A stretch of DNA of 64,000 bases, taken from assembly GCA_018663865.1 (NCBI GenBank), contig JABJPM010000030.1, positions 117 to 64,116 on the forward strand, in the 5' to 3' direction. Shown here piece after piece: positions 6,965 to 64,000 of the stretch. Every line of letters starts with the position of its first letter. Position 1 is the stretch's first letter. Origin of the DNA: Candidatus Woesearchaeota archaeon (lineage in GTDB: Archaea > Nanobdellota > Nanobdellia > SCGC-AAA011-G17 > PNOQ01). A model generated the notes under the pieces. The model was not told where the DNA came from. It saw only the letters and a program-made list of their open reading frames with translations, and made no database searches. The position numbers were made by a program, and so were the translations under genes.

Positions 6965-7741
6965 ATGGGACAAATAAAGAAATTTCGAAAAAAATATGAA
7001 ACTCCTATGCATCCTTGGCAAAGAGAGAGACTTATTGAAGAAAAAGAATATGTTTTAAATTATGGTTTCAAAAATAAAAAAGAAATTTGGAAAGAAATTG
7101 CAAAATTGAAAAAAGCAAGATTGCAATCAAAGAAAATTATTGCAAATAAAACTTCTGAACAAGCTCTAAAAGAAAAAGATCAATTATTATCAAGGTTGAT
7201 AAAATTTGGAATTTTAATGAAGGATTCAACTATTGAAGATGTATTGGGATTAAAAGCAACAAATTTCTTCGAGAGAAGATTGCAAACTGTAATTGTTAAA
7301 AAAGGTTTAGCAAGATCTGTTAAACAAGCAAGACAATTTATTGTTCATGGACACATATTTATTGGTGATCAAAAAGTTAGTTCACCCTCATATATGGTAT
7401 CCTTGGCTGATGAGTCCAAACTCTCTTTTAATACAAATTCAACTTTATCTAAAGAAGATCATCCTGAGCGAGCAGTATTAACTAAAAAGGATGAAAAAGT
7501 TTTAGAAGAGATAAAAGAGAAGAAAGAATCTGCTAAAAAAGAAAAAAAAGTAGAAGTTAAAGAAGAGAAAAAAGAATCTCCTAAGGAAGAAAAAAAAGTA
7601 GAAGTTAAAGAAGAGAAAAAAGAATCTCCTAAGGAAGAAAAAAAAGTAGAAGTTAAAGAAGAAAAAAAAGAATCTCCTAAGGAAGAAAAAAAAGTAGAAG
7701 TTAAAGAAGAACCTGTCAAAGTGGCAGGGGCAAGTGAATAA
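6965..7741 (+). CDS. rps4: 30S ribosomal protein S4 (uS4) with repetitive Lys/Glu-rich C-terminal extension
   Basis: uS4 N-terminus '[15 protein letters not shown]', S4 domain, then four 48-nt tandem repeats encoding [16 protein letters not shown]. Confidence 0.9.
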
Positions 7742-10516: not shown

Positions 10517-11089
10517 ATGAAGGTAGGTATATTAATTTTTATTTTAATTTTAATAAGCGGATGTCAGACTCCTCAATTGTCTAAACAAATATCGTATGAT
10601 GATAAAATTATTTTTGGAAATGCATTTAATACTCCTTGTGAAAAAGAAGAAACTAAATCTACTGCATTGATTCGTACTTATAAATTTAAATCTCGCGAAG
10701 AAATAACGACTAATTTTCCAATTATTCTTTCAGAGTTAGGTGCATCTGAAAAAATCATAAATGAATATGCATCTGAAAAAAATATTGTTGAAAAATTTCC
10801 AATGTTGTCTGAAAATTATGACGAATATCATAAATTGAAAGAAGAACAAAAAGGGTGCATACCTTGTGGATTTGCAGGTGGATGCGAGTTTGGAATAACT
10901 CATTGTGAAGACGGTTGTTGTGAATTAGATGATTTTGGATTAAATTGTGAGGAGTGTAGTTCTGGCAGTGGACAAAGATGTATTGGTTCTGTATGTACTA
11001 ATATTGATTATGATCCTTTACGCCCAGAAGAGGGGAGAATAACATTTACAATTGAATTTAATACATGGGATGAATTATTACCCTGGTGA
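10517..11089 (+). CDS. Putative lipoprotein with Cys-rich C-terminal domain
   Basis: Signal peptide with lipobox-like 'LISGC'; nine Cys in last 70 residues. Confidence 0.5.
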   Translation: MKVGILIFILILISGCQTPQLSKQISYDDKIIFGNAFNTPCEKEETKSTALIRTYKFKSREEITTNFPIILSELGASEKIINEYASEKNIVEKFPMLSENYDEYHKLKEEQKGCIPCGFAGGCEFGITHCEDGCCELDDFGLNCEECSSGSGQRCIGSVCTNIDYDPLRPEEGRITFTIEFNTWDELLPW

Positions 11090-18258: not shown

Positions 18259-18753
18259 TTATGCTCTTCGTAATTCTAAATATTCTTTTATTTCATCTGC
18301 CAAGGTATATGCCTTGGCACTTAACATGCTTTTACTCGCAGATATTCTTTCGTTTATTATGTAATCCTCATATAATTTTTTTATAAATTTTCTTTTTTTG
18401 AATTTGCCTTGCCTATCTGTGGTCACTTTGGCATCCATTTTTAAGGAAAGGTCTAATTTGTTTGTTCCAATTTTTTTACCATCAATTTCCACTTCAATGT
18501 CTTTCATTCCCAAGATATTAAATGTAATATTTATTGTATGCAAAAGGTATGGGCCCATGAATTTTTCTGCACACCATTTTATTTCAATTTGTTTTGAATC
18601 GCCCTTTATTCGTTCAACATAAACTTCTTCTTGGAATGTTTTTTTTTCATCACCGTAACCTTCCCAAGTCAACCATTCTTTAATTAAAGAATATAATTCT
18701 CCCATATCAAAGATGCCTTTATCTTTAATTGCAGTGGACATTACTTTTCCCAT
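18259..18753 (-). CDS. Member B of the same about 163-aa paralogous family
   Basis: Tandem to member A; same architecture. Confidence 0.5.
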   Translation of the reverse strand: MGKVMSTAIKDKGIFDMGELYSLIKEWLTWEGYGDEKKTFQEEVYVERIKGDSKQIEIKWCAEKFMGPYLLHTINITFNILGMKDIEVEIDGKKIGTNKLDLSLKMDAKVTTDRQGKFKKRKFIKKLYEDYIINERISASKSMLSAKAYTLADEIKEYLELRRA

Positions 18754-39441: not shown

Positions 39442-39978
39442 ATGGAAAAGATTAAACGAAATATGAAAAGAGGAATTTCACCTTTAATATCGTACATTTT
39501 AATTATTACTTTGTCAGTTAGTATTGGTTTTTTAGTTATAAATGCGTTAACTTCTGAAGTTGATAAATTTGAGATTGATCCGATGGTGGGATATTGCGAT
39601 GATGTAAGTATTTCTGTTGAGGGGGTCTGCCTTAATGGAAGTATGATTAAAGTAAATGTTACGAGTACAGGGTCTTTTTCTGTCCATAAGTTTTCTTTTG
39701 GGAGAGTGACCAATGTTTCTGCCTTGCAATGGTGTGATGTGAATTTGTCTGCATCCCCCTTAGATTTTGGGATTGAGACTATATATGGGATTAGTCGTGG
39801 TGCTGATTTTAATGTTGCTGTGAATGAGTCTACAAAAGCATGTGATTATTTGTATCCCACCTCTACTGCAGGAATTGCAGAAATTAGAGTAATGCCTTGG
39901 ATAAAACCTGAGGGAGAATTAATAAGTTGTAAAAATAAAGAAGTAATAATTAAGGAGGGAATAAATGGGAATTGTTAA
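39442..39978 (+). CDS. Archaeal type IV pilin
   Basis: 'MKRGISPLISYILIITLSVSIGFLV' class III signal. Confidence 0.65.
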   Translation: MEKIKRNMKRGISPLISYILIITLSVSIGFLVINALTSEVDKFEIDPMVGYCDDVSISVEGVCLNGSMIKVNVTSTGSFSVHKFSFGRVTNVSALQWCDVNLSASPLDFGIETIYGISRGADFNVAVNESTKACDYLYPTSTAGIAEIRVMPWIKPEGELISCKNKEVIIKEGINGNC

Positions 39979-40453
39979 TAAAAAAGGAGTTTCACCATTA
40001 GTAGCAAGTATATTGTTAGTTGCAATTGTTATTGTTATCGCATTTCTTGTATTTTGGTGGTATGGGGATTATGTTGCTGAGAATTTAGATAAATCTGGAA
40101 TAACTGCAGATCAAGCATGCATGCAAGATGTAGGATTTAGTATAACTAATGTTAATTGTTTACAAAATTCATTAGATACTAATAAATTAGTGTATTTTGA
40201 TTTAGAAAATACTGGTGACATTGGACTGAGTGCTTTCAAAGTAAGTATTGATGGCAATTTGGCTGATGATGTAAAATCAATATCTCAAGAAGTTAGGGAG
40301 GGTGTAACTAGCAAATTAAGTTTCGAGTATGATTTTGATGTTGTTGGAAATACTTTAACTACTGATATTGTTCCATTGATTTGGGCTGGTGGAGGTACAA
40401 AGTATTGCAAAGATAAAACTCAGACAATAAATGTGGTTTGTTTGTCTGCATAA
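39965..40453 (+). CDS. Archaeal type IV pilin
   Basis: 'NKKGVSPLVASILLVAIVIVIAFLV'. Confidence 0.7.
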   Translation: MGIVNKKGVSPLVASILLVAIVIVIAFLVFWWYGDYVAENLDKSGITADQACMQDVGFSITNVNCLQNSLDTNKLVYFDLENTGDIGLSAFKVSIDGNLADDVKSISQEVREGVTSKLSFEYDFDVVGNTLTTDIVPLIWAGGGTKYCKDKTQTINVVCLSA

Positions 40454-40492
40454 AGGTTAACTTTATATATTTCTTTTTTTATTTTTCTTTTT

Positions 40493-40903
40493 ATGTTTAA
40501 AAAAGGGGTTTCATCACTAATTGCTACTATTTTATTAATTGGAATTACTATTGGATTATCTTTATTGGTTGTCAATTGGGCCAAAGACAGTGTTGAAGAT
40601 CAAACCGATAATCCTGTTTTTGATATTGAAACTAGGGAAATTTGCAGGAGTGCTTTGACGGACTTTGAATTTGTTTTTGAGAGTGTGCGTGTCAATATTC
40701 AAAACAAAGGTCCAAATGATTTTAGTTCTGTTGCAATTCTTTGGACGGCCGAGAATGGTTCAATTGGATATAATTCTTTAACTTCGAGTATTTCTGGATT
40801 TGGATTCGGAAATGCTAGTTCTGATAGTGGAGTGTATTCTGGAGTGAAAGTAATTCCTTATGTTTCTGGATTGGAATGTGATGGATTCTATGTTGAAATT
40901 TAA
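40493..40903 (+). CDS. Archaeal type IV pilin
   Basis: 'MFKKGVSSLIATILLIGITIGLSLLV'. Confidence 0.7.
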   Translation: MFKKGVSSLIATILLIGITIGLSLLVVNWAKDSVEDQTDNPVFDIETREICRSALTDFEFVFESVRVNIQNKGPNDFSSVAILWTAENGSIGYNSLTSSISGFGFGNASSDSGVYSGVKVIPYVSGLECDGFYVEI

Positions 40904-40979
40904 ACCACAATATTTAAATAGATATAATTTTATTTTAGATATAATTATATTTAATTATAATTAAAAAGGAGGTAAGAAA

Positions 40980-41414
40980 ATGAATAATAAAAAAGGAGTT
41001 TCTCCATTAATCGCTACTGTGATGATTGTTGGAATTGTTATTGCTCTATCTTTTTTAGTTACTACTTGGATAACTGGTAGTGTTGAAGATACGATTGATG
41101 ATACTGATTGTGAAATGGAAGCTCAAGAGAGATGTAGTGAATTAACTAGTGCTGTGAAGTTATCTGTTAATGGTGCGGGTAATAAACTTATTGTTTCTAA
41201 TGAGGGTGCAACTGATATAAAGGGATTGAATGTAGTTCATTATGATAAGGATGGAAATTCTAATTCGGGGTCTGAATTTGATCTGAGTGCATATAAATCA
41301 AATATTAATACTAGTATAGGGAGTAGCGATATTGCTTTCAAAGTGTTTATGGTTGGAACTGATGCAGATGAATTATGTAGTGTGGAATGTTCTCCAGTAT
41401 TATTAGAACTATAA
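40980..41414 (+). CDS. Archaeal type IV pilin (recent paralog pair, copy 1)
   Basis: 'MNNKKGVSPLIATVMIVGIVIALSFLVTTWITGSVED'. N-terminal 40 aa and about 75 bp upstream are nearly identical to copy 2. Confidence 0.75.
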   Translation: MNNKKGVSPLIATVMIVGIVIALSFLVTTWITGSVEDTIDDTDCEMEAQERCSELTSAVKLSVNGAGNKLIVSNEGATDIKGLNVVHYDKDGNSNSGSEFDLSAYKSNINTSIGSSDIAFKVFMVGTDADELCSVECSPVLLEL

Positions 41415-41528
41415 TTTTTTCTTTTTTTCTTTAATTTTTTTCTTTTAATATTACCACAATATTCAAATAGATATAATCTTATTTTTTACATATTCATATT
41501 TAATTATAATTAAAAAGGAGGTGAAAAA

Positions 41529-41957
41529 ATGAATAATAAAAAAGGAGTTTCGGCATTAATTGCTACAGTGTTAATTGTTGGAATTGTTATTGCTCTATCT
41601 TTTTTAGTTACTACTTGGATAACTGGTACTGTTGAAAATGATATTGGTAATATTGATTGCGAAATTGAGGCTCAAAATCTTTGTTTAGAATTGACTGACG
41701 ATCTTAAACTTAGTTCTGGTACAAGCGCAGTGATTTTTACTAATGAGGGTCCAACTGATATAAAAAATATCACAATTGTACAATTTGCACTCAATGGGTC
41801 TACAATATCCAGTAATGATCCTTCCGGGATAAATAGTTATTCGAGTCATGCTCAATCAACTGACGCGGGCGCTTTCCAAATGAAGGCATTCATAACGGTG
41901 TTTGGTGAAGATGGGCTGTGTGAAGTTGGTTGTAATCCTGTTACAATCGAAATATAA
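41529..41957 (+). CDS. Archaeal type IV pilin (recent paralog pair, copy 2)
   Basis: 'MNNKKGVSALIATVLIVGIVIALSFLVTTWITGTVEND'. Confidence 0.75.
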   Translation: MNNKKGVSALIATVLIVGIVIALSFLVTTWITGTVENDIGNIDCEIEAQNLCLELTDDLKLSSGTSAVIFTNEGPTDIKNITIVQFALNGSTISSNDPSGINSYSSHAQSTDAGAFQMKAFITVFGEDGLCEVGCNPVTIEI

Positions 41958-49943: not shown

Positions 49944-49975
49944 AACTTTTTTTCTTTTTTTCTTTTTAAATTAAT
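49940..49975 (+). terminator. Oligo-T terminator-like element TTTTTTTCTTTTTTTCTTTTT (family recurring after surface/pilin genes)
   Basis: Same T-rich motif after genes ending at 41414, 41957, 49943, 50742, 53990. Confidence 0.4.
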
Positions 49976-50055
49976 TATGGGAACATATATATATATGTAA
50001 AATTATTATTTCTTTTATAATATTAAAGGAGAGTGATAATAAATGAAAAAAAATA

Positions 50056-50742
50056 ATGTTTGGAATTTTATTTTTGGCTGTGATTATGATTTCTAGTTGT
50101 AGTCCTGAAATGAGTCCTGAAAGTAAAAGTTTGCAATTAAATGTGCCTAGTGGCGGTGGCGCGACTCGCATATGCGAGGATAATGATGGTGGAAGAAATT
50201 ATTATCTCCAAGGAGATGTTTATTATCACTCTGCCCCTGAGAAGAGATTTACAGATACTTGTGTAAGTGATAATGGTGATGGGACCCCTGTTGAGTCTTC
50301 AAGGTTATTGAAGGAATATTATTGCGATGATTTTTCTGAAATTATGCATATTAATTATGGTTGTGTTAATGGATGTTTAGATGGAGTTTGTTTAGATGAA
50401 CCAAGTTATATGGATCCTACTCAATGTGTTTTTCAAATTGCCACGGAAGGATATGGGGATCAGGATGTTGTAGTGGGTTGTGATCAAGATCAATTTGTTG
50501 GAAAAATTACCCACATTTTATGCCCAGTTTCAGATGATAATCATTATTTGATTTCTACAGGATGGATGACTAATACATTGCCTTTTGAAATGGGCTATAC
50601 TTGTGTAGATTCAAATACTGGTGAATGGAAAAAACCTACTAGAATATCGGCATATTGTTGTAATATACTTGATTATGATTTAGCTGGAAAAGAAATTCAT
50701 AAAACTAGTATAGATAAATCGGGGAATTTAATTTCCTCTTAA
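50056..50742 (+). CDS. Cys-rich lipoprotein with conserved leader (family copy 1)
   Basis: 'MFGILFLAVIMISSCSPEMS' lipobox. 5' region is about 95% identical to 53547-53645 and 63941-64000. The upstream ATG is out of frame because of an A8 versus A7 tract. Confidence 0.6.
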   Translation: MFGILFLAVIMISSCSPEMSPESKSLQLNVPSGGGATRICEDNDGGRNYYLQGDVYYHSAPEKRFTDTCVSDNGDGTPVESSRLLKEYYCDDFSEIMHINYGCVNGCLDGVCLDEPSYMDPTQCVFQIATEGYGDQDVVVGCDQDQFVGKITHILCPVSDDNHYLISTGWMTNTLPFEMGYTCVDSNTGEWKKPTRISAYCCNILDYDLAGKEIHKTSIDKSGNLISS

Positions 50743-50878
50743 TTTTTTTCTTTTTTTCTTTTTAAATTCTTTTTAAATATTTATAAAGGATGTTTACTGC
50801 ATTATACTAATTAAAATACCACAGTGTTTTTATATAAAACTCAGACTTCTCTTAAGTAATAAAAGGGGGTTTAAACAA

Positions 50879-53497
50879 ATGAGTGATAAAAAATTAAGTT
50901 TAGTATTATTGATGTTATTTATTTTACCTATTGCATTTGCAAGTAATAGTTTTACGTTTTATTCTGGGGCGGAATTCGAAAGTGTATGTCCTAGGTCTAC
51001 TGGATTATATTCAGATGTAATTGAGAACAATGGGGATACCGTATTGGATTTTAGTGTTTCTGCTTCTGGCAGTGCATCATCTTTTTCTACTAGTGTCCCA
51101 ACAGGATTCACATTATATCCTGGAGAGATAAAAAATATTTATACATATGTTACTCCAACATCTAGTGTTGATGTTGGGAATTATGTTTTAACATTGGATG
51201 TAAATGCTAATGGAATTTCTAAAACAATTAATCATGATGTAATTGTGGGAGATTGTTATGGTTATACATTTGATGTATTAGATGAACAAAAAAACATTTG
51301 CCCATGCGGTGATGAAAAATTTGGATTTGAATTAACTAATTTTGGAGAATATTCCGAAACTTATGAATTGAGTATTGGCGGATCATATTCTAATGAAGTT
51401 GTTTTAAGTCAAAATATTGTATCCTTAATTTCTGGCGGAAGTAAAATAATTTATGCATATGTGCAATCTTCTTGCGATAGTGCCCCTGGAGATTATGAAT
51501 TTAGTATAAATGTTGATCCGGTATCTGGAACTTCTGTAAAGTCTCAAGTTGCTTTGTTGAAGATTGATGGTTGCTATGAATTTGATATTAATACTGAAAA
51601 AGATTTAATTAATATTTGTGAACATTCTGTAGAAAATATACCTATCACTGTTGAAAATACTGGTATGTCTTCGAATGTTTTCAATTTCGATTTGGATGGG
51701 CCTTTGTGGGCTAATTTAGAGAAAAATAAATTGAATATTGTTTCTGGTTCAGAGGGAATAGTAAATTTAGAATTAGTACCGGATTATGGTGTTGAAGGGA
51801 GTTTCCAAATTACATTTAGTGCAACTCCTGAAAATGGTGTTGTAAAAGCAGTTAATGTATTTGATGTTAATGTTAAGAAATGTTACGATATTTCTGTTTC
51901 ATTAGAAAAAGATGAAGACAAAATCTGTAATGCATTAGAAAATACCTACAATGTTTTGGTTAGAAATCAAGGAGAATTTGAAAAAGAATTTTTTGTTGAT
52001 ATTGATGGGCCAAACTGGGTAAGCGTAGATGAAACCTCTGTTTTATTGGGTGCTGGAGAAGAAAAGCAATTGACTTTGAGAGTTTTCCCACAGTACAATA
52101 CTCCTGCTGCAGAATACAATGTCGAAGTTAGTGTAACTGCAAAAGATAGTAATAAAATAGCAAGTAAAGATTCAATGGTTATTGAAACGGCGACTCAAAC
52201 TGAATGTTATGATGCATTATTGAGTTTGGAAGAAAAATCATTAAATATTTATTATGATGCTAGTGCAACAATTCCGATTATTGTTGAAAATAAAGGGGCA
52301 GATGTGGCTACATATAGTTTGTCTGTAAGTGGGACTGCATCAAATTTTGTGTATTTAAATCCATCCACAATTGATGTAGAACAAGGTAAATCTGAAATTG
52401 TATATCTTTATGTTGCACCTTCAAATAAGGTTTCCAATGGAGATTATGAGGCTAGCATCGCAGTGAGATTGGATGATTCTACAATTTTAGCATCTGACGA
52501 TATTAAAATAACTGTGACTGATAGTCCAGAGGATATTCCTGAATATTCTCCTGAAGATGAAAATTCAAAATCTTTCTTTGAAAAGATTATTGAACTTTTC
52601 TCCAATTTAGTCGGAGGATCTGAAGATGTTATTGATACACCATTATTGAATATTACTCCGGAAGTAATTGAAGAAGAAACTCCAGAAGTAATTGAAGAAG
52701 AAACTCCAGAAGTAGTCGGGGAATTGATGAATATTGGGGAAGAAATCGATTTTGAAGTTGGAGAAGAAGATCACGTAATGAAAATTAAAGAACGATCTGG
52801 CGAAGTATTATTGATGGAATCAAATTCAGTGTATGTTCAATTATATCCTGGAGATGTTAAGAAAGTAGATGTCAATGGTGATAGTGCAGAAGATATCGAA
52901 TTAACATTTAGCGGATTCGTTGGCGATAAAGCAGATGTAAGTTATGTTTTATTGGAACAACCAGAATTGATTGATGATTCTGGAATGGAAGATATTAGTG
53001 GAGAGGTAGTCAAAGAACCTGAAGATGATGGTAATGGTTTCTTTGGAAATTTTTTCAATAGCTTAAAATCAATTTTCGTTGGATTTGGTGGAGCAATTGT
53101 TTCATATGGATTACAAATTGGAATCTTCATTTTGCTTATTGCTGCAATTGTGGCAATGAACAAAACAAAATTTTGGGAAAAAATTGCAAAATTCTTTGAA
53201 GAAGAAGTTGAAGAAGGAGTTGTTTCAAAAAGTGAAGAAACTCCGCTTGAAGTCAAAGAGGAAAAAAAGGTTGAATCTCTTGATGCGAAAGAGGTTGATG
53301 ACCTTGTTATAGAATCTTTTGATGATGAAAAAGAAATAAAAGAATCTGAGGAAGAAACTAAAGAAGAACCTGCGAAAAAAGAAGTAAAACCTAAGATAGA
53401 AAAAAAAGCCAAAAAAGAAAAAAAACCTAAGAAAAAGAAAGAAGAGCCAAAAGAAGAAGAAGAAGATGAGTTCGTTATCGAGTTTGATGACGATTAA
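50879..53497 (+). CDS. Very large (872 aa) surface protein: signal peptide, repeated beta-rich domains, C-terminal TM helix and K/E-rich tail
   Basis: 'LVLLMLFILPIAFASNS' signal; recurring 'GDCY/KCYD/DGCYEFD' domain starts; 'TPEVIEEE' x3; TM 'GLQIGIFILLIAAIVAM'. Confidence 0.6.
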   Translation: MSDKKLSLVLLMLFILPIAFASNSFTFYSGAEFESVCPRSTGLYSDVIENNGDTVLDFSVSASGSASSFSTSVPTGFTLYPGEIKNIYTYVTPTSSVDVGNYVLTLDVNANGISKTINHDVIVGDCYGYTFDVLDEQKNICPCGDEKFGFELTNFGEYSETYELSIGGSYSNEVVLSQNIVSLISGGSKIIYAYVQSSCDSAPGDYEFSINVDPVSGTSVKSQVALLKIDGCYEFDINTEKDLINICEHSVENIPITVENTGMSSNVFNFDLDGPLWANLEKNKLNIVSGSEGIVNLELVPDYGVEGSFQITFSATPENGVVKAVNVFDVNVKKCYDISVSLEKDEDKICNALENTYNVLVRNQGEFEKEFFVDIDGPNWVSVDETSVLLGAGEEKQLTLRVFPQYNTPAAEYNVEVSVTAKDSNKIASKDSMVIETATQTECYDALLSLEEKSLNIYYDASATIPIIVENKGADVATYSLSVSGTASNFVYLNPSTIDVEQGKSEIVYLYVAPSNKVSNGDYEASIAVRLDDSTILASDDIKITVTDSPEDIPEYSPEDENSKSFFEKIIELFSNLVGGSEDVIDTPLLNITPEVIEEETPEVIEEETPEVVGELMNIGEEIDFEVGEEDHVMKIKERSGEVLLMESNSVYVQLYPGDVKKVDVNGDSAEDIELTFSGFVGDKADVSYVLLEQPELIDDSGMEDISGEVVKEPEDDGNGFFGNFFNSLKSIFVGFGGAIVSYGLQIGIFILLIAAIVAMNKTKFWEKIAKFFEEEVEEGVVSKSEETPLEVKEEKKVESLDAKEVDDLVIESFDDEKEIKESEEETKEEPAKKEVKPKIEKKAKKEKKPKKKKEEPKEEEEDEFVIEFDDD

Positions 53498-53567
53498 TCT
53501 CCTTATTTTTTTTCATTAATTTTTTAAACTTTCAATTCCGATTATTTCTCAAGGAGAGTGATAATAA

Positions 53568-53990
53568 ATGAAAAAAATAATGTTCGGAATTTCATTTTTA
53601 GTTGTGATTATGATTTCTAGTTGTAGTCCTGAAATGAGTCAAAGATATGATCTCGGAATTACGTCCAATGAATGCATTGATTTGGATGGAGATGGATTTG
53701 GAGATGAATGCCCATTGGGAATCGATTGTAATGATGAAGATGATTCTAGGTGGTTTTGGAGACCTTTCTATCTTGATGAAGATCAGGATTCTTATGGTGC
53801 TGAAGAATTAGTTACATTTGAATGTTGGGGAAATTTTGAAAATTCGCAATATCCGTTGGATGAGATGGCTTTTAATAAATTAGATTGTGAGGATTTAAAT
53901 AGGAATATTAATCCTGGTGCAAAGGAAATTTGTGGCAATGGGGTTGATGAAAATTGTGACGGATTCGACCTTAGATGTTTGAAGAAATAA
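53568..53990 (+). CDS. Cys-rich lipoprotein with conserved leader (family copy 2)
   Basis: 'MKKIMFGISFLVVIMISSCSPEMSQ'. Confidence 0.6.
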   Translation: MKKIMFGISFLVVIMISSCSPEMSQRYDLGITSNECIDLDGDGFGDECPLGIDCNDEDDSRWFWRPFYLDEDQDSYGAEELVTFECWGNFENSQYPLDEMAFNKLDCEDLNRNINPGAKEICGNGVDENCDGFDLRCLKK

Positions 53991-54004: not shown

Positions 54005-56839
54005 TTATAATCTCAAACTAGTTATTTTGGAAACTCCGCTTTGCATGGAAACACCATAGATTTGATTTGCCTCCGATATTATAGAATCATTATGCGAGAT
54101 TACGATATATTGTGCACTAGAGGAATATTTTGCAAATAATTTTCCTAATTTTTCTGAATTATGTTTATCCAATGCTGCATCCACTTCGTCTAAAATGTAA
54201 AATGATGCAGGGTTATATTCTTGGATTGCGAATATGAATGCAAGTGCAGCCATTGTTTTTTCTCCTCCAGATAAACTTCGTATATCTAAATATTTTCTTG
54301 ATGCGATTCGCACGGTTATGTCCAATCCTGCATCCAAGGGGGCCTCGGGATTTTCTAAAACTAATGATGCTTCCCCTTTTGTTGACAAGCTGTTAAATAT
54401 CTCTCTAAATCGATTATTTAAGTGGGTATATGTTTTCATGAATACTTTTGTTTTATCTTGCTCTATTTCAAGTATCATGCCCATAATGTCATCTTTTTCT
54501 GATCTCAAAGTGTCCGTTTTTTCTACTAGTATGGCATGTTCTTTTGCTAATTGATCATAAATTTCTAAAGCTTTCATATTTACATTGCCCAATCTTATCA
54601 TTAATACTTCAAAATCTTTTATTTCTTTTTTTAATACTTCAATGTTTAAGTTTTTCTTTATTTTTCCTTCTTTATAATCTTCTGCCTCTTTTTTCAGCCC
54701 GGCTATGGATGCAATTGCCCCTGCTTTTTCTATTGCAATTGTATTTATTTTATTTTCAATTATCCTAACTTTTTCATTTTTTTCAGAAATTCTGATGTTC
54801 TGTCTATCGATATCATCTGTCAATTTATTTCGTTTTGAAAATAATGATTTTTGTTTTGCATAAAATTCTTTCTCTTTAGTTTCACTATCTTTCAGACTTC
54901 CGGATTTGAATTTCATTAATCCTTGAATACCATCTAATTCTTGATTAAATTCTAATGTTTCTTTATCTAAATCGGCCATTATCTGATATGTTTTTTCATT
55001 TTCATTTCCTAGATATTCAATTTTGTTATCAAAATTTGATATGGCCGCTTTCAATTCAAATTCTTGAGTCATTAATTGTGTTTTTTGTTCATTGAGCATT
55101 GATGGTTTGTTTGATGATTCTAGGTCTCTTTCTAATTTCAATATTTCATCTTCCACATTATCTTGTTTGAATCCGATTCTTGTTTTTTCCCTGGATCCAC
55201 CTATCATTGCTCCACTTTTCTCTACTAAATCTCCTTCAAGTGTCACCATCCTTATTCTGCCCATTCCCACTCTTCTTGCAATTTGGATACTTTCTACAAT
55301 CAATGTATTTCCGAATATATTTTCAAATGCTGATTTATATTTAGGATTAAATTTGATTAAGTTTAATGCAACGCCATGCACCCCTTCTTTTTTTGTTAAA
55401 TCATTTAAACTTGGATGAAGCAATCTTGGTTTTATTCTATTTAATGGCAAGAATGTAGCTACCCCAGTTCTATTTTTTTTCAATGTACGTATGCATTCTT
55501 CTGCAACTGTATCGTCTGCAGTCACCACACTTTTCATTTTTCCACCTGCAGTAACTTCTAATGCTAATCCATATTTTGATGAGACTTTCCCTAATTCTGC
55601 GATTGTGCCGTGCACTCCTGGAAAATCAAGGATAGATTCTATTGCACTGTTTGATGCCCCACCAGATGATCCAAGTTTGGATTTTAATCTTGCTAATTCA
55701 TTAATTTTTACATTCATATCTATCTTTGAAGGGATTTTTTTGGATATGCTCGATTGTTGTTTTTCAATTTTTGATATTTTTGAATCTAATTTCTTTTTTT
55801 CATCAACAAAGGATTTTATTTTTTTATTATTTTCCTGAATGCTTGATTTCAATTGTGATTTTCTACCTTCTATTTTTTTAATTTCGTTTTTTATCATTTC
55901 CAATCTGGATTGAGATTTAACAACATCTGTTTTTATATCGGTAATATTTTCCCGTATATTTATTTGATCTTTCTCTCCTCGTTTTTCCAAATCTTCATTT
56001 ATTTCAGTTAATTCTGATTTTTTCTTGTTCAATTCAATTGTCAATTCATCCATCGTTTCCTTGAACTTTCGATAATTGAGTTTATGTTTTTCTATTATTT
56101 CAATGATATTATCTAATTTTTTTTCTTTTTCTTTTATTTGAATATGAATATATGTTGCTTTATTATCTTTAATTTTGTTTTTCAATTCTAAATATTTCGT
56201 CGCTTGATCTTTATCTTTCTTAAGTTCTCTAAGATTTGCATCTCGTTCTGTCAATAGGATATTTGCTTCTGTTAATTTTTCATCAACTTTTCCCAATTCC
56301 AATAATGATTTGTTTTTCTTTTCTTCGAATACAGATATTCCTGCGATTTCTTCAATCAATTGCCTTCTTTCTAATGGTTTCATTGTCATAAAATGTACAA
56401 TGTCTCCTTGAAGAATTATGTTGTGCCCATCTGGATCAATTTTTGCGATTCTTAAAATGTCCACAATTTGTTGACGGGTCATTGTTTTATTATTTAATTT
56501 GTAAACGGATTGCCCGTTTTGTTTTACAATTCTTGAGACTTTCAATTCTTTCCCTTCTACTGGGAATTCTTTTTCTGAATTATCAAAGTAAATAGAAACT
56601 TCCGCTGTCTTTGAAGGATTTTTGTTCTTTCCTCCGTTATAAATTAAGTTTGATGATTTTTCTGCCCTCATGGATTTTGCAGATGTTTTTCCTAAAACAA
56701 AACATAACGCATCCATGATGTTGGATTTTCCAGAACCATTTGGTCCAAGAACACAATTAAATTCTGTACCAAATTTTAAATCTGTTTTTTTTGCGAATGA
56801 CTTGAAGCCGGTCATACTTAGTCTTGTCACTGTAGTCAT
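54005..56839 (-). CDS. smc: SMC chromosome segregation ATPase
   Basis: Walker A 'GPNGSGKSNIMDA', hinge 'VHGTIAELG...LEVTAGG', signature 'LSGGEKTMAALAFIFAIQ', Walker B 'FYILDEVDAALD'. Confidence 0.9.
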   Translation of the reverse strand: MTTVTRLSMTGFKSFAKKTDLKFGTEFNCVLGPNGSGKSNIMDALCFVLGKTSAKSMRAEKSSNLIYNGGKNKNPSKTAEVSIYFDNSEKEFPVEGKELKVSRIVKQNGQSVYKLNNKTMTRQQIVDILRIAKIDPDGHNIILQGDIVHFMTMKPLERRQLIEEIAGISVFEEKKNKSLLELGKVDEKLTEANILLTERDANLRELKKDKDQATKYLELKNKIKDNKATYIHIQIKEKEKKLDNIIEIIEKHKLNYRKFKETMDELTIELNKKKSELTEINEDLEKRGEKDQINIRENITDIKTDVVKSQSRLEMIKNEIKKIEGRKSQLKSSIQENNKKIKSFVDEKKKLDSKISKIEKQQSSISKKIPSKIDMNVKINELARLKSKLGSSGGASNSAIESILDFPGVHGTIAELGKVSSKYGLALEVTAGGKMKSVVTADDTVAEECIRTLKKNRTGVATFLPLNRIKPRLLHPSLNDLTKKEGVHGVALNLIKFNPKYKSAFENIFGNTLIVESIQIARRVGMGRIRMVTLEGDLVEKSGAMIGGSREKTRIGFKQDNVEDEILKLERDLESSNKPSMLNEQKTQLMTQEFELKAAISNFDNKIEYLGNENEKTYQIMADLDKETLEFNQELDGIQGLMKFKSGSLKDSETKEKEFYAKQKSLFSKRNKLTDDIDRQNIRISEKNEKVRIIENKINTIAIEKAGAIASIAGLKKEAEDYKEGKIKKNLNIEVLKKEIKDFEVLMIRLGNVNMKALEIYDQLAKEHAILVEKTDTLRSEKDDIMGMILEIEQDKTKVFMKTYTHLNNRFREIFNSLSTKGEASLVLENPEAPLDAGLDITVRIASRKYLDIRSLSGGEKTMAALAFIFAIQEYNPASFYILDEVDAALDKHNSEKLGKLFAKYSSSAQYIVISHNDSIISEANQIYGVSMQSGVSKITSLRL

Positions 56840-59169: not shown

Positions 59170-59769
59170 TTAATAGTCCCCTAAATTTTTTTGAGCTTCT
59201 GCCTTCGCAATTCGCTTATATGTTGCCCAAGTTTGCCTGAATAATTCTGGATGTTTTTTCCAATTCGCCTTTAGAAATGCTTGAGTAATTGGGTTTGCCG
59301 GATAACCTGGCCCTGTTTCGCCGTAGATTTTCCTTAATTTATCAATTTCTGCATCTCTTGTAACTTTTGCTAAGATAGACGCCGCACCAGGTTCTATGTA
59401 GTTTAAATCTGCTTTGTGTTCAGTCACGAATTTCACATTTTTATCTTCAACTCTTTCTTTTACAAATTCCTCATATGATTGAATATTTGTTGAAGGGCAA
59501 TCTAATATTGCTTTTTCTGGTTTTAACTCGTTAATTATTTGTGCAGTTGCGACCCCTTCTAATTTATTTAAGTTTGAATCTGGAGAATTTAATGCATTAT
59601 CAATCTCCTGAGGAGATAAAATTATAATTTTGTATGAAGTGACTATTTTTTTAATAACTTCAAACATATCTTCTCTTTTTGCAGGAGGAATTAATTTTGA
59701 GTCTTTAACGCCCATATTTCTTAATTGTTCTGCTTGTTCTGGAGTTACCACTACACCAGCCATAACCAT
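59170..59769 (-). CDS. rnhB: RNase HII, C-terminal roughly 90% (lacks the N-terminal catalytic GIDEAG block in this frame)
   Basis: 'MVMAGVVV...DSKLI...' continues a canonical RNase HII. The upstream in-frame sequence reads ...TAGGPVLGPMVMAGVVV immediately after a TGA. Confidence 0.8.
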   Translation of the reverse strand: MVMAGVVVTPEQAEQLRNMGVKDSKLIPPAKREDMFEVIKKIVTSYKIIILSPQEIDNALNSPDSNLNKLEGVATAQIINELKPEKAILDCPSTNIQSYEEFVKERVEDKNVKFVTEHKADLNYIEPGAASILAKVTRDAEIDKLRKIYGETGPGYPANPITQAFLKANWKKHPELFRQTWATYKRIAKAEAQKNLGDY

Positions 59770-59813
59770 TGGACCAAGGACAGGACCCCCTGCGGTGAGA
59801 AAAACTAGTTGCT

Positions 59814-60848
59814 TTACTCATTTCCGGCTTCGTCGATGCCACAAGTCAATGATTTTCCTTTTTCAGTTTTATTCCATTCCGTATCCATTTGTTTTACCAA
59901 TTCCTCTTTTTTTAACAATCTTAGTTTTTTTCTGATTGTTTTTCTTGGAATGTTTGTATCTCTCGATAAATCGCATATCTTTTTAAATTTATCTAGGGAA
60001 GTTAAAATTACTTTTTTATCATTTAATAAGATTTCTGTTATTATTTTTTTCTTGGCCCAAACGGTTTTATTTTTTATTTTCATATAACTTATCTTTTTTT
60101 CTGTTTTTAATTCTCTTAAAACATCTAATATTCTTGCTGGAGATCTATTAAATTTTTTAGATAATTCGAGTGTTCTAGTTGGTTTTATTAAAGTTTTTTC
60201 TATATTTTTTTTAAGAAATCCTTTTGAGTAGTGTGGTTCTTTTAAACTATTGATCATTCTTGCAAATTTAAATTGTTTTTCTGGATGTAATTCGGCAATG
60301 TTTAATTTATTTGTTTTTTCTAGTTGACAACCATATATCCAATAGTTTCTGTCTTGTGATTCGAATGTATGTTCTATATTAAAATGATTCAGAATATTTT
60401 CTAATATTATATATCTTTTTGATTGAGATATTCTTATACTTCTTGAATTATTATTTTTTGGATTGTGTTTAATATTGCCTTCCCCTGCAAAAAACCCTCT
60501 CAATATTCTCGAATAATTTATTTTTTCTTTTAATGTTTTGTTTACTATACTTTTCCATTCCTTTACGAAATTCACATCTGCTAGTCTATAAATATAATAT
60601 GTCTTTTTTGCTCTAATGTCTTGATAATATCTTATTTTTATATTTCCTATTTTATTGAAAAGTTTTCTTTTTGATGGGGAATATACATAAATTCTTGGTT
60701 TATTGTCTCCGGTATATATCGAATTAATTGTTTCATGAAAAAATAATATTAATTCTATGCAGTTATTTGTAAATGTTATTTCAGAAATTGTTTTATTGTC
60801 TCCTTCTGCTAACCATAATCCAACGCATTCTGATATTTGTTTATTCAT
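59814..60848 (-). CDS. LAGLIDADG homing-endonuclease-like ORF with HTH-like C-terminal region, ending in the RNase HII N-terminal catalytic motif (...SLTCGIDEAGNE*)
   Basis: Two LAGLIDADG-type motifs ('CVGLWLAEGD' at residues 8-17, 'GFFAGEGN' about 108 aa later); K-rich wHTH-like segment; last 8 residues GIDEAG = RNase HII motif I. Confidence 0.6.
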   Translation of the reverse strand: MNKQISECVGLWLAEGDNKTISEITFTNNCIELILFFHETINSIYTGDNKPRIYVYSPSKRKLFNKIGNIKIRYYQDIRAKKTYYIYRLADVNFVKEWKSIVNKTLKEKINYSRILRGFFAGEGNIKHNPKNNNSRSIRISQSKRYIILENILNHFNIEHTFESQDRNYWIYGCQLEKTNKLNIAELHPEKQFKFARMINSLKEPHYSKGFLKKNIEKTLIKPTRTLELSKKFNRSPARILDVLRELKTEKKISYMKIKNKTVWAKKKIITEILLNDKKVILTSLDKFKKICDLSRDTNIPRKTIRKKLRLLKKEELVKQMDTEWNKTEKGKSLTCGIDEAGNE

Positions 60849-61065: not shown

Positions 61066-62025
61066 TTAAAATAAATTGAATAATTTTCCTATGAATAATA
61101 TATAAAGAATTACTAACATCCACCCTTCCCATTGTGTAACTTCTCTATCTTGAGTTGTGAAATAATATGTTAATGTTGCTATGATCATTACTGGTAAAGC
61201 AAATGTTAACATTGAAGCAGGAATTATTAATTTTCCGAATAATGCTGGAATTCCCATTACTGCTAATGTATTGAAAATATTAGATCCTAAAACATTACCT
61301 ATTGCCATTTCTGGATTTCCTTTTTTAGCTGCAGTTATAGAAACAAATAATTCAGGTAATGATGTTCCTAGCGCTATTGCACTTACTGCAATTATTTCTG
61401 TTGCGATATTAAGTATTTCGGAGATTTGGATTACAGAATCGATAGTATATTTTGCTCCGAAAAATATAAAGATTGTACTTAATATTAAAGTCCACCAAAC
61501 TTTTTTGTCTAGTTTTTGTTTTTTAATTTTTTTTCTCTTTTTTATTTCTTTTTTTATTTCTTTATCTTTTTTTGAAGTTGAAATTGTATATTTCATATAT
61601 ACAAATAATAGTGCTAGTGAAAGTATTGCTTCAAAAGTTGAAAAATGTTGGTCCCATATTGCTATTGTGAATAGCATTGTCGCACCAAATAATATTGGTA
61701 AATCAACGTGAACTAACCCATAATGAACTTTAAGTTTTTTCCCCATTATTGCTGCTACACCAAGTACTAAGAATATGTTTGCAATATTTGATCCAATTAC
61801 ATTACCAACTACAATTTCTGATGAATTTTGCATTACTGCAAAAAGAGAAGATATTAACTCCGGCAGTGATGTACCGATTGCAACTATTGTAACTCCTACA
61901 ATAAATGCGGGCATTTTTAAGTGCAATCCAATTTTTTCTGCTGAATCTGTAAAATAATCTGAAGCTTTGATTAGTGTGTACAATCCTGCTATGAAAATTA
62001 TTATCCAGATTGTTATGTTTAACAT
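61066..62025 (-). CDS. Ca2+/Na+ antiporter (CaCA family)
   Basis: Duplicated alpha-repeat 'GTSLPELISSLFA' / 'GTSLPELFVSITAA'. Confidence 0.85.
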   Translation of the reverse strand: MLNITIWIIIFIAGLYTLIKASDYFTDSAEKIGLHLKMPAFIVGVTIVAIGTSLPELISSLFAVMQNSSEIVVGNVIGSNIANIFLVLGVAAIMGKKLKVHYGLVHVDLPILFGATMLFTIAIWDQHFSTFEAILSLALLFVYMKYTISTSKKDKEIKKEIKKRKKIKKQKLDKKVWWTLILSTIFIFFGAKYTIDSVIQISEILNIATEIIAVSAIALGTSLPELFVSITAAKKGNPEMAIGNVLGSNIFNTLAVMGIPALFGKLIIPASMLTFALPVMIIATLTYYFTTQDREVTQWEGWMLVILYILFIGKLFNLF

Positions 62026-62100
62026 TAGAATTATTTTAATTTTTTGTTTTAAATATGTTTTGGAAAGTTTTAAAAGTAAGTTTATGATTTAATTTCTTAT

Positions 62101-62184
62101 GCCGAGATCGCATAGCCTGGTTATTGCACTGGATTGCTAATCCAGGTCCTTTGGGACTCCTGGGTTCAAATCCCAGTCTCGGCG
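62101..62184 (+). tRNA. tRNA-Ser (anticodon GCT), type II
   Basis: GCCGAGATCGCATAGCCTGGTT...anticodon loop TTGCTAA...long variable arm...GGTTCAAATCCCAGTCTCGGCG. Confidence 0.85.
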
Positions 62185-62253
62185 TATTCCTTATTAAGCA
62201 AAAGCCCTTAAAGCTATAGAACATTTTATAAATAATAATTTCTTTTTATTATT

Positions 62254-62718
62254 ATGAAATTATATTCAATCTTATTACTATTAGCTTTAACTATTTTTAT
62301 TAGTTCTTGTTCTGGAAATATCAGTTCTCAACAAATTGGATGTGACCCTACTGAAGATCAGTTTTATTTAGTAGAAAATATTGGATATACAATTGATAGT
62401 GATTCTGATGCTTTGGAAGCGTTTAAAGAATATTCTTGTTCTTATGATGATGAAGGAGGTAGTTTTGGAATGACAGATTGTATTAGAAATAATATGGCTG
62501 TTGATGAAGCCATTGGAAGCATTATAAGAAAATATGATTCAATAACTTTAAAAGATGGTTCTTTAATAGATTCTGTTTGGGTATTGTGGAGTAATCAAGC
62601 TTTCGATAAGGAAGGAAATTTTTATTATTGTGAACATATTTCAATCAATGATGGACCAGGACAATTTTGTGATGAAACTGGATGCTCTCCTTTACCAGAA
62701 GGGAAACAACCTGAATAA
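62254..62718 (+). CDS. Lipoprotein (154 aa)
   Basis: 'LLLLALTIFISSCSGNIS' lipobox. Confidence 0.55.
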   Translation: MKLYSILLLLALTIFISSCSGNISSQQIGCDPTEDQFYLVENIGYTIDSDSDALEAFKEYSCSYDDEGGSFGMTDCIRNNMAVDEAIGSIIRKYDSITLKDGSLIDSVWVLWSNQAFDKEGNFYYCEHISINDGPGQFCDETGCSPLPEGKQPE

Positions 62719-62770
62719 TAAATAATAGGAGGAAAAACTAAGAAACAATAGTTTTTGCTTAATAGGCCTT

Positions 62771-62788
62771 CAGCCCAGTCTCGGCGTT
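62771..62788 (+). repeat. Duplicate of the tRNA-Ser 3' end (CCCAGTCTCGGCGT), att-site-like
   Basis: 14-nt exact match to 62171-62185, 600 bp downstream of the tRNA. Confidence 0.6.
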
Positions 62789-62827
62789 TTTATTTTATTG
62801 AAAATGTTAGAATTGAAATAGAGTAAT

Positions 62828-63850
62828 TTATTTTAATCTTGATTTTATTTCTTCAACTAATTTTGGATTTATGTAAAAATTCATAGTCATTGTTGGATTA
62901 TTTTTCCAAACATGATCTTTTTTAACATATTTTTTGTGTCCTAATTTTGCAGCTATATTTGTGTATAGCTCATTAACTTCTTGTTTTGTTGGAGATTTAT
63001 TTTTATTTAAAAAGTTTTGAGTTGTTTTTGTTGCATAATAAGATCTTACTATATGTGGATAAAATTCTTTTCCACAATATTGTTTGAATGCTTTTTTGAA
63101 ATGCATATCTGAATAAGGGTGATTTGTATTTGGATTGACAAATATAAAATCATGATCTTTTTTATTGTTCATCCTTTGTTTTAATTGTTTAATATATTCT
63201 TTAGGAAATTCATTTGATAATTCTAATGGTACTCCATCTTTTGCTTTGTATTTGAATGTTACATTATTTTTATTTATTGTTATATCTTTTTTCTTTAATG
63301 TTGATAATCCTTTGTGTTTATGAGTTTTATAATAAATTTCACTTCCAACTCGCATGTATGTTTTTAATAATGTATACATTGGTAAAGCAATATCTTCTTT
63401 TGTTAAGGATTTTTGAATATTTATTTTTAGTTTAGAATAATATTTTTCAAATTCTTTCTCTGTGTTGTATTTTTTTGTTTTTGCCCTTTCTTTTTTTTCT
63501 AGGGTGTAAACATATGAATATGTGTTTGATGGATTTTTATAAATTACATCCCAATGTGCATTCGATGATTCGTCATGAATTGTTAGGTCTTTTGCAAAAA
63601 GAGAATATGCCTTGTCAAGTTTTTCATTATTGGGTAGCATGTTTATTCTTGCACCCTGTGGTTTTTCATTAAATTGCCCTTTCAAGAAAGTATTATCTTT
63701 TTTGTCTATTAAGACTTTGAAATTATTGTGATCTTTGAATAATTGAATTACTTTCATTGCATTTGGAAATTGACTTTTTGATTTTTTCCAAGAAGTTTTT
63801 GTTTTTTCATACACTTGAAGATCTTCTGTTTTGATTCTGTATGTTTTCAT
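62828..63850 (-). CDS. Tyrosine-recombinase / type IB topoisomerase-fold protein
   Basis: Box-II-like 'YPHIVRSYYATK' (HxxR...AT) followed by 'KLGH'; 340 aa; adjacent to the tRNA-Ser 3'-end duplication. Confidence 0.45.
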   Translation of the reverse strand: MKTYRIKTEDLQVYEKTKTSWKKSKSQFPNAMKVIQLFKDHNNFKVLIDKKDNTFLKGQFNEKPQGARINMLPNNEKLDKAYSLFAKDLTIHDESSNAHWDVIYKNPSNTYSYVYTLEKKERAKTKKYNTEKEFEKYYSKLKINIQKSLTKEDIALPMYTLLKTYMRVGSEIYYKTHKHKGLSTLKKKDITINKNNVTFKYKAKDGVPLELSNEFPKEYIKQLKQRMNNKKDHDFIFVNPNTNHPYSDMHFKKAFKQYCGKEFYPHIVRSYYATKTTQNFLNKNKSPTKQEVNELYTNIAAKLGHKKYVKKDHVWKNNPTMTMNFYINPKLVEEIKSRLK

Positions 63851-63959
63851 TATGTTTATTTTGGTTTATTTTATTAAAAAGGTTTGTTTTTTTGACCAAT
63901 ATATATATATATATGTATATTTTTATTATGATTATATATTAAAGGAGAGTGATAATAAA

Positions 63960-64000
63960 TGAAAAAAATAATGTTTGGAATTTTATTTTTGGCTGTGATT
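63960..64000 (+). CDS. Cys-rich lipoprotein family copy 3 (5' end only; cut by window end)
   Basis: 'MKKIMFGILFLAVI' and upstream RBS/(TA)n region identical to copy 1. Confidence 0.5.

Follow-up and report, generated by a model that had tools for sequence, protein, structure and literature searches.

Introduction

In the Erp family of Borrelia burgdorferi (OspE/OspF/Elp, with its 'upstream homology box'), promoter and operator DNA, the leader and the first residues of the mature protein are conserved, and the remainders of the open reading frame (ORF) have independent origins and recombine (PMC10016077). By analogy, this family is the closest functional parallel to the genes described here, three lipoprotein gene copies with a common 5′ cassette in a Candidatus Woesearchaeota archaeon, a tiny, uncultured marine member of the DPANN archaea. 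They are located on contig JABJPM010000030.1 of assembly GCA_018663865.1, in a stretch of 64,000 nucleotides (nt; contig positions 117 to 64,116, forward strand). This stretch is called the window, and coordinates refer to it. As in Erp, one leader and tether are found on unrelated bodies, with apparent recombination patches at the junction. Erp is bacterial and Lgt- and Lsp-dependent, and its genes share a single allelic site on the multicopy cp32 prophage plasmids, whereas the copies described here are archaeal and occupy dispersed chromosomal loci. Unlike in Erp, the promoter is probably of a TATA type with a TA microsatellite, and promoter DNA is common to only some of the copies. Erp has no sequence homology to the woesearchaeal family, and Pfam and NCBIfam gave no match between them.

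Simple repeats occur within or close to the promoter of Mycoplasma lipoprotein genes, as poly-A in vlp of M. hyorhinis and as GAA in vlhA of M. gallisepticum. Vlp proteins undergo phase variation (cited in PMC11868660). The Vlp/vlhA systems resemble the woesearchaeal family in belonging to a reduced-genome, cell-dependent organism and in forming a lipoprotein family with a conserved 5′ prolipoprotein-signal region. The TA tract in the window and an (ATT)8-9 tract in a sister lineage are in positions comparable to the Mycoplasma promoter repeats. The Mycoplasma repeats are long and visibly heterogeneous, and switching was shown experimentally. In contrast, the coding A tract of the woesearchaeal genes is invariant across samples in its native context, and only a one-unit TA polymorphism is found.

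In the tandem lpl lipoprotein cluster of Staphylococcus aureus, a highly conserved DNA segment is the site of homologous recombination that shuffles the variable parts (PMC2568036). Both lpl and the woesearchaeal family consist of paralogous lipoprotein genes with a conserved segment as a recombination site, a putative one in the archaeon. The lpl segment is central in the ORF of tandem homologs, whereas here it is at the 5′ end of genes with non-homologous bodies at dispersed loci. Archaeal lipoproteins are recognised by the lipobox [LVI][ASTVI][GAS]C; lipoproteins and AliA are reported to be prevalent in DPANN archaea, AliA 'with some gaps' (PMC12462473). Like the lipobox lipoproteins of Haloferax volcanii and their AliA/AliB system, the proteins in the window have a positive start, a hydrophobic core and a lipobox before the mature protein. 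Many haloarchaeal lipoproteins are exported via the twin-arginine translocation pathway. The leaders in the window are without a twin arginine and are therefore considered Sec-type. None of the Erp, Mycoplasma Vlp/vlhA and archaeal lipobox systems is a homolog; the family exemplifies an evolutionary pattern already known, here in a host group new for it. The literature searched contained no description for Archaea of a near-invariant leader on unrelated paralogs that is homogenised within a genome.

DPANN archaea live attached to other cells. Their surface proteins are likely contact points, and how the repertoire is built and varied is poorly known. The locus shows an archaeon with a solution familiar from bacteria, in which a single module for export, anchoring and tethering sits on many small cysteine-rich domains and is apparently kept uniform by recombination. 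The account we favour, and consider fairly probable, is a multigene family of Sec-type lipobox lipoproteins in which a portable, homogenised 5′ module sits on unrelated, fast-evolving cysteine-rich bodies, with a fixed frameshift in an A8 tract of one copy.

Results and Discussion

The Cassette and Its Copies

A preliminary description of this DNA, made from the letters alone, was checked against the whole window and against loci and proteins fetched from other assemblies (L- and P-numbered, respectively). It had reported a near-identical cassette at three loci, which was recovered at all of them. The cassette reads AAGGAGAGTGATAATAA-ATG-A7/8-TAATGTT... and starts at 50026 (copy 1), 53551 (copy 2) and 63942 (copy 3). 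Its 27-nt core, AAGGAGAGTGATAATAAATGAAAAAAA, has exactly these three matches in the window; the expectation from 100 dinucleotide-preserving shuffles is 0. The 36 nt coding for VIMISSCSPEMS, which contain the signal peptide and lipobox, are completely identical between copies 1 and 2. Copies 1 and 3 share an exact stretch of 72 nt 3′ of the A tract. Their likeness extends past the 95 nt first described and includes a common tether, SPEMSP(E/K)xxSLQLN(V/I)P.

All three copies are on the + strand. The ribosome binding site (RBS) is of the Shine-Dalgarno type, AAGGAGAGTGAT, and is complementary to the 3′ end of the archaeal 16S rRNA. It is located 5 nt before the first start codon of copy 1 (ATG1) at 50026-50037 and recurs unchanged at 53551-53562 and 63942-63953. 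Copy 2 is a gene for 140 amino acids (aa; 53568-53990) with ATG and A7 (53571-53577) and the leader MKKIMFGISFLVVIMISSC (Cys codon 53622-53624). Copy 3 starts at 63959 with ATG and A7 (63962-63968) and is cut by the window end at 64000; the full gene in L022/L023 codes for 150 aa, MKKIMFGILFLAVIMISSCSPEMSPKDRSLQLNIPSSSS.... In copy 1, unique upstream sequence (GTAAAATTATTATTTCTTTTATAATATT, 49997-50024) precedes the RBS and TAATGTTTGG follows the A tract. ATG1 of this copy is followed by A8 (50046-50053) and opens an out-of-frame reading frame of 17 codons, MKKNNVWNFIFGCDYDF and a stop (50043-50096). The long ORF opens only from the internal ATG2 and encodes 228 aa (50056-50742), MFGILFLAVIMISSC..., with the hydrophobic region and ISSC (Cys codon 50098-50100). 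Direct reading thus bore out that the eighth A puts the MKKI start of copy 1 out of frame. The features of a lipobox precursor, MKK, IMFGILFLAVIMI and I-S-S-C, are present in copies 2 and 3 and in an A7 form of copy 1; the A8 allele is missing the MKK start. ISSC matches the lipobox motif.

The bodies have 6-12 cysteines, 5-7% of their residues, and are unrelated, as the preliminary description had held; for copy 3, this was established with the full body from other assemblies. In BLASTP, the similarity of copy 3 stops after 36 residues to copy 1 and after about 44 to copy 2. Copy 1 has the tether SPEMSPESKSLQLNVP (50101-50148) and two widespread, uncharacterised cysteine-rich domains. Domain A (about residues 40-120) has the pattern CxDSDGGxNY...EYYC...GCxxGxC and is repeated up to 8 times per large protein. 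Domain B (about residues 120-230) has the pattern YMDPTxC...FVGxVTHIxCP...GTGWxxNTLP...YTC...YCCxI. Neither has a Pfam model. A word-indexed search had made the copy-1 body an orphan, which was overturned by an exhaustive HMMER search with 596 hits in the two domain families at E ≤ 0.001 (P0028-P0177). Copy 2 (within 53568-53990) contains a MopE-like putative metal-binding motif, PF11617. In the search of the family against Pfam and NCBIfam, only this motif and a DUF285 body were named. The predicted structures were too poor for a fold search, with a predicted local distance difference test (pLDDT) score of 37 for copy 1 and 44 for copy 3.

Further copies were found elsewhere in the same population, at least two. 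P0027 has the DUF285 body behind the leader MGNKIILGILVLAVIMISSCSLQMSPESKSLQLNVP, with a cassette of 85% identity. It lies on a contig of 74 kb, and its sample also contains a window-type contig. P0025 (294 aa, leader MKKIMFGILFLAAIMISSCTPEMSPKDNQLNIP) is from a sample that also holds a window-type contig; its BLASTP similarity to copy 1 stops after 39 residues. A more distant lineage (L001, L003-L005) has the leader version MKKIVFGVLFLAVVLVVSGC behind an identical RBS and ATG-A7, preceded by (ATT)8-9, and L001/L005 carry one leader on two different bodies. The leader of a distant protein, P0102, is MKKIMFGILFLAVVMISGC, and several small homologs of the copy-1 body have related leaders. Across lineages, the leader is found on at least six unrelated bodies. 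As in Erp, a conserved leader and first mature residues are combined with bodies of independent origin (domains A and B, MopE-like, DUF285 and others). A profile search with nhmmer over the window and six loci revealed no silent or partial cassettes of the kind kept in antigenic-variation archives beyond the known copies. The signal-peptide 26-mer had no match in a first scan of metagenome DNA.

By sequence, the cassette copies appear to derive from a portable module for export, anchoring and tethering, through concerted evolution or recent transfer. This module comprises a strong RBS, an ATG-AAA-AAA-ATA start and a signal peptide with I-S-S-C at its end, and the cysteine is followed by a tether rich in Ser and Pro. 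Most copies also have a presumed promoter with a TA microsatellite, about 45-60 nt 5′ of the ATG. The RBS would drive initiation at ATG1. The anatomy of the leader predicts Sec export, and the cysteine would be lipidated via an AliA/AliB-type pathway. The Ser/Pro/Gly-rich tether may act as a flexible stalk on the cell surface that keeps the disulfide-bonded domain off the membrane. Every body would thus obtain the same start, export route, lipid anchor and stalk. The module has been copied onto new bodies at new loci, with copies in one genome apparently kept alike by gene conversion and the amino acids of the leader kept nearly constant by selection. Modular anatomy, dispersal to new loci, homogenisation within the genome and the fixed frameshift all emerge from the comparison of the loci.

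The A Tract of Copy 1

The position of the A tract in codons 2-4 suits switching: A7 is in frame, A8 and A6 are out of frame. The preliminary description had suggested slipped-strand phase variation at A7/A8. The same locus was gathered from many metagenome assemblies by exact-protein look-ups, and the tract states are those of the assembly consensus. Copy 1 behind its own upstream DNA has A8 in the window and in 14 of 14 other assemblies. Nine of the 14 were found through the copy-2 protein, so their selection could not favour A8. Copy 2 has A7 in all 16 covering assemblies and copy 3 in all 10. A sequencing error as the origin of A8 was ruled out by its recurrence across different assemblers and samples; A8 is a real and stable consensus. 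Among the native-context assemblies covered, the A tracts of copies 1-3 had no length heterogeneity at the same locus at the consensus level.

For a hypermutable repeat, a repeat number beyond the expectation from composition is the critical step of definition (PMC11868660). The window has 148 A/T runs of at least 7, and 130 ± 12 are expected from a first-order Markov model of the window. A8 runs occur 14 times and ATGA6+ sites 18 times. With run counts at expectation, the A tract is ordinary MKK coding in an AT-rich genome and stays at the level set by composition; the TA tract exceeds it (2 against 0.3 expected). Phase variation at A7/A8 is thus not supported at the consensus level, and A8 does not switch often enough for changes to be seen between samples. 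A homopolymer difference near the start codon in an AT-rich genome should not be taken for phase variation without population data.

A7 forms of the copy-1 body do exist in assemblies. Its protein cluster includes 232-aa forms starting MKKIMFGILF..., which correspond to A7. They are encoded on 4-5 contigs from four samples, all 1.2-1.6 kb in length and with about 2x coverage where stated. L032 and L033 start 23 and 17 nt before the ATG, where the likeness of copies 1 and 3 begins. In L034, the copy-1 body is preceded by 660 nt from upstream of copy 3, which include the topoisomerase IB gene. The body in L035 has a third upstream context, with the end of a membrane-protein gene, promoter-proximal DNA of the copy-3 type and (TA)5. 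Its spacing of 68 nt equals that 5′ of P0025, which hints that this context may be the P0025 locus. None of the gathered assemblies and A7 contigs pairs the own upstream DNA of copy 1 with A7. Such contigs are the expected product of repeat-collapsed assembly graphs, since copies 1 and 3 share the exact 72-nt stretch. Alternatively, genuine recombination may have given rise to them, and L032 and L033 may represent genuine A7 alleles or transcripts.

The copy-3 ortholog of a sister lineage (L036/L037) has the sequence ATGAAAAAATAATG, an A6 allele with MKK-stop in which the stop overlaps the internal ATG. The allele is the same in both samples of this lineage, and the downstream ORF is intact. 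The A tract has thus mutated at least twice, once per lineage, in agreement with homopolymers as indel hot spots. Within each lineage, it is stable.

A8 in copy 1 is a fixed 1-nt insertion in the Lys-Lys codons that takes RBS and ATG1 out of register with the lipoprotein frame. In this population, copy 1 probably yields little or no protein, because ribosomes from ATG1 cross ATG2 out of frame and ATG2 is about 23 nt from the RBS. It is a minor possibility, compatible with the module family and concerning the state of copy 1 only, that the protein is expressed despite A8, by +1 ribosomal slippage, by slippage of RNA polymerase to A7 transcripts or by initiation at ATG2. The 228-codon ORF has remained intact in a genome of 31% GC and has native codon usage. 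Read from the sequence, a +1 shift on AAA-AAA-A gives exactly MKKIMFG..., and L032 and L033 start where transcript ends might. For the A6 allele, the overlapping stop and start (TAATG) in ATGAAAAAATAATG would permit re-initiation. Against expression stand the distance of ATG2 from the RBS and the lack of a stimulatory element and of RNA structure, and A8 is short for efficient slippage as generally known from bacterial systems. Frameshifting by -1 on A-AAA-AAT was rejected by frame arithmetic; only +1 or -2 can restore the frame.

The TA Tract and the Promoter

The (AT)6 microsatellite 5′ of copy 1 (49985-49996) ends 46 nt before ATG1. The (AT)8 microsatellite 5′ of copy 3 (63899-63914) ends 44 nt before the ATG. 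The shared TA tract first described for these two copies is therefore present, with other lengths than the (TA)6-7 given. The near-identical promoter did not hold: 5′ of the RBS, copies 1 and 3 have only the TA tract and about 8 nt in common. The RBS is identical in all copies; for the DNA next to the promoter, identity is limited to copy 3 and the L035 context. Tracts of (TA)≥5 occur only twice in 64 kb, with 0.3 expected, both in these cassette promoters; copy 2 in the window is without one. A TA tract is also present at the L035 locus, and shorter ones are located 49-60 nt before the ATG at the cassette loci of L038, L041 and L045.

The TA tract is probably the TATA box of an archaeal promoter, because its distance of 44-46 nt from the ATG fits a TATA box with a 20-30-nt leader. 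The predicted transcription start is about 20-30 nt before the ATG, some 25 nt 3′ of the TA tract. Promoter positions over other genes (seven usable) weakly favour a TATA box at -50 to -60, and two pilin-like genes of the window have a similar TA and promoter layout. The tract is a true unstable microsatellite: copy 1 has one extra unit, (AT)7, in 2 of 14 assemblies (ERZ27237607 and ERZ27237599), and copy 3 is constant in 10 of 10. It may tune promoter strength. Comparison of strains, as originally proposed, thus uncovered variation in the TA tract and recombination patches in the cassette, with the A tract invariant in its native context. No RNA element was found in the cassette; folding of 5′ untranslated region and leader gave z-scores of -1.3, -0.03 and -0.17 for the three copies.

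A side observation concerns the sister lineage. An (ATT)8-9 microsatellite, which recalls the GAA repeats of Mycoplasma vlhA, is located between a TATA-like TTTATATATGG and the same RBS in L001 (- strand, 540-600), L003 (about 1150-1215), L004 and L005. The count is 9 in L001 and 8 in L003-L005.

A contingency locus, in which the A tract and perhaps the TA tract switch single surface lipoproteins by slipped-strand mispairing and copy 1 is OFF, seems unlikely. It would account for the three tract lengths A6, A7 and A8 among homologous cassettes, for long intact ORFs in both frameshifted genes, with a ratio of nonsynonymous to synonymous differences (pN/pS) of about 0.7 and not 1 on the A6 branch, and for A7 on the copy-1 body. 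The one-unit TA difference, the restriction of over-represented (TA)≥5 to cassette promoters and the (ATT)8-9 at the same place in the sister lineage also fit. The uniform A8 of native-context assemblies, nine of them chosen irrespective of the tract, speaks against switching, as do the constant A7 of copies 2 and 3 and the fixation of A6 in both samples. The A7 contigs begin at the repeat boundary or bear upstream DNA of another copy, which argues for collapse or recombination and not for slippage in place. A7 and A8 are no longer than composition predicts, and ATG-AAA-AAA is ordinary coding for a signal peptide.

Evolution of the Cassette

Substitutions were counted after Nei-Gojobori, with codons 5-24 as the cassette in comparison to the body. 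For copy-3 orthologs of three species, the proportion of synonymous differences (pS) was 0.28-0.41 in the cassette and 0.36-0.39 in the body; the proportion of nonsynonymous differences (pN) was 0-0.03 and 0.20-0.22, respectively. For the paralogs copy 1 and copy 3, pS and pN were both 0 in the cassette, and 0.67 and 0.48 in the body. Copy 2 differed from copy 1 or copy 3 by a pS of 0.19 and a pN of 0.04 in the cassette, and by 0.62-0.63 and 0.50-0.56 in the body. Constraint on the nucleotide level was ruled out for the cassette, its synonymous divergence between species being that of the bodies. The counts indicate a very strong constraint on the leader at the protein level and fast evolution of the bodies (pN/pS about 0.5-0.6). 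The strong conservation of the leader amino acids suggests a demanding or dedicated route of export and lipidation. With the leader as a query, the lipoproteins on the surface of this clade could also be catalogued in a simple way.

The cassettes of copies 1 and 3 are 100% identical, and copy 3 has 97% and 92% identity with its orthologs. Copy 2 of the window shares 92% with copies 1 and 3 and only 84% with its own ortholog (L047). The pattern is repeated by the orthologs of copy 2 in L047 and copy 3 in L036, both from SUTE22-labelled samples assumed to be one species, with 88% against 84%. The cassettes of L001 and L005 share 98%. Cassettes thus group by genome, the signature of gene conversion or repeated module transfer. 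A plain paralog family, with recent duplication and ordinary signal-peptide constraint, no ongoing recombination and no special role of a module, appears improbable. One recent copying event would suffice for copies 1 and 3, as they are identical and copy 1 is lineage-specific, and neither silent cassettes nor a recombinase site beside the cassettes were found. It does not fit the cassette of copy 2, which is nearer to its own-genome paralogs than to its ortholog, or the SUTE22 pair. The leader on at least six unrelated bodies argues for repeated transfer of the module and not for duplication of whole genes.

Differences between strains are clustered at the cassette. L040 has only three differences from the window in 9.7 kb, AGTCCT to ACGCCG (50102, 50103 and 50106), all within 5 nt of the cassette. 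L029 and L022 differ at 10 positions in 3.66 kb, all within 39 nt of cassette and tether, and the changes in L029 bring the tether of copy 3 closer to that of copy 1. Two assemblies have the same 3-nt variant ACGCCG, one in copy 1 and the other in copy 3, a further point against plain paralogs.

Copy 1 is missing between the orthologs of a 420-aa and an 872-aa gene in L045, a more distant lineage, and its absence from this syntenic site makes copy 1 a lineage-specific insertion. L045 has a copy-2 ortholog with a related RBS and TATATATA at -52, and is without copy 3 and the topoisomerase IB block. The unit of promoter and gene of copy 1 is bracketed by a perfect direct repeat of 26 nt on the + strand, a T-rich, terminator-like TTTTTTTCTTTTTTTCTTTTTAAATT at 49947-49972 with its exact match at 50743-50768. 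It may have arisen when a terminator was duplicated and served for insertion. Behind the pilin-like genes at 41415 and 41958 there are T-rich motifs that resemble the repeat inexactly. The codon usage of the copy-1 ORF is native-like (GC content at third codon positions, GC3, 0.20), and a foreign origin of its body was rejected. The idea of a 5′ cassette moved or homogenised by recombination on divergent bodies is supported by the additional copies, the insertion of copy 1 and the paralog cassettes. The latter are identical at synonymous sites, compared with differences of 28-41% between orthologs, and are accompanied by the clustered patches of strains.

Several points weigh against the module family with a fixed frameshift. 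Two independent frameshifts at one A tract, A8 and A6 in L036/L037, both with intact ORFs, exceed a simple model of decay, and A7 contigs with the copy-1 body come from four samples. The samples are seemingly mostly from one fjord time series and hence not fully independent. The same-genome status of P0027 and P0025 rests on co-occurrence in samples and not on a closed genome. The mosaic patches of L040 and L029 and the junctions of L034 and L035 could be mis-resolved repeat bubbles of metagenomes instead of conversion, which would also suit plain paralogs. The identity of copies 1 and 3 could come from one recent duplication rather than from ongoing conversion. Lipidation, export and promoter use are inferred only.

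A true contingency system, with repeats in the TATA box (TA or ATT) and after the start (A6, A7 or A8) and with cassette recombination that pairs promoters, leaders and bodies anew, is quite unlikely; it would vary the cysteine-rich surface proteins displayed to the host cell, and the L034 and L035 junctions, if real, would show the re-pairing. To our knowledge, it would be the first repeat- and recombination-based system of phase or antigenic variation described in Archaea.

Host and Gene Neighbourhood

The window has 30.8% GC, an archaeal signal recognition particle RNA, a 5S rRNA and six tRNAs. Proteins at NCBI with the same sequence as copy 1 (MBT4835622.1 and others) carry the name Candidatus Woesearchaeota archaeon, and near-identical contigs are part of two metagenome-assembled genomes, GCA_018692575.1 and GCA_018647965.1. 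Record names (SI39no09_200m, SI073_bin58) suggest that the samples are from an oxygen-poor fjord water column.

Copies 1 and 2 are within a cluster of cell-surface genes on the + strand. Its products are an ATPase of a type-IV filament, two platform proteins and two large proteins, of 420 and 872 aa, that have a membrane anchor at the C-terminus. Two other lipobox proteins of the window have different leaders, MKVGILIFILILISGC at 10517 and MKLYSILLLLALTIFISSC at 62254-62718; the shared cassette is thus not used by all lipoproteins of the genome. A second family with repeated 5′ ends is located at 39976-41700. Its four tandem small genes share an N-terminal hydrophobic segment NKKGVSPL(V/I)A..., similar to pilins and class III signals, and their own RBS, promoter and terminator blocks are conserved and recur every 490-549 nt.

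The region of copy 3 (62205-64000) is a variable island at a tRNA gene, and copy 3 may therefore travel with a mobile element. Strains diverge about 20 nt past the 3′ end of tRNA-Ser. In the window, the tRNA gene is followed by a 154-aa lipoprotein, a topoisomerase IB (PF01028) and cassette copy 3; in L006 (18640-20423) and JGI 3300072015, it is followed by a GNAT acetyltransferase and/or a tyrosine integrase. The tRNA-Ser GCT (62100-62185) is itself polymorphic. The otherwise near-identical strain L006 (about 18566-18597) carries 32 additional nt, TTTGAGGTAACTTAACGGTTCCTTAAGGTGAA, immediately 5′ of the anticodon, and ARAGORN made no call there. The insertion resembles a non-canonical tRNA intron with a presence/absence polymorphism.

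The population is nearly clonal, with clustered divergent patches also outside the cassettes (52425-52684 and 61647-62057). They affect the 872-aa surface protein in L019 and a Na/Ca exchanger in L006, L027 and L028, and suggest frequent homologous recombination with diverged relatives. In L007 and L017, the PEVIEEET repeat of the 872-aa protein also has a 24-nt indel.

A 48-nt tandem repeat of about five units (7487-7726) codes for a Lys/Glu-rich stretch. In the gene of a structural maintenance of chromosomes (SMC) protein, a 25-nt deletion in L013 (JGI 3300037805; window 54433-54457) results in ORFs of 127 and 536 aa. RNase HII is seemingly interrupted on the - strand (59170-60848). The GIDEAG motif is at the end of a 344-aa ORF, which has a faint LAGLIDADG_3 match. 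About 29 nt with stop codons follow, and then RGPVLGPMVMAGV... in a 199-aa ORF. All covering assemblies have the same layout, and a related species (L038) encodes an uninterrupted RNase HII of 217 aa.

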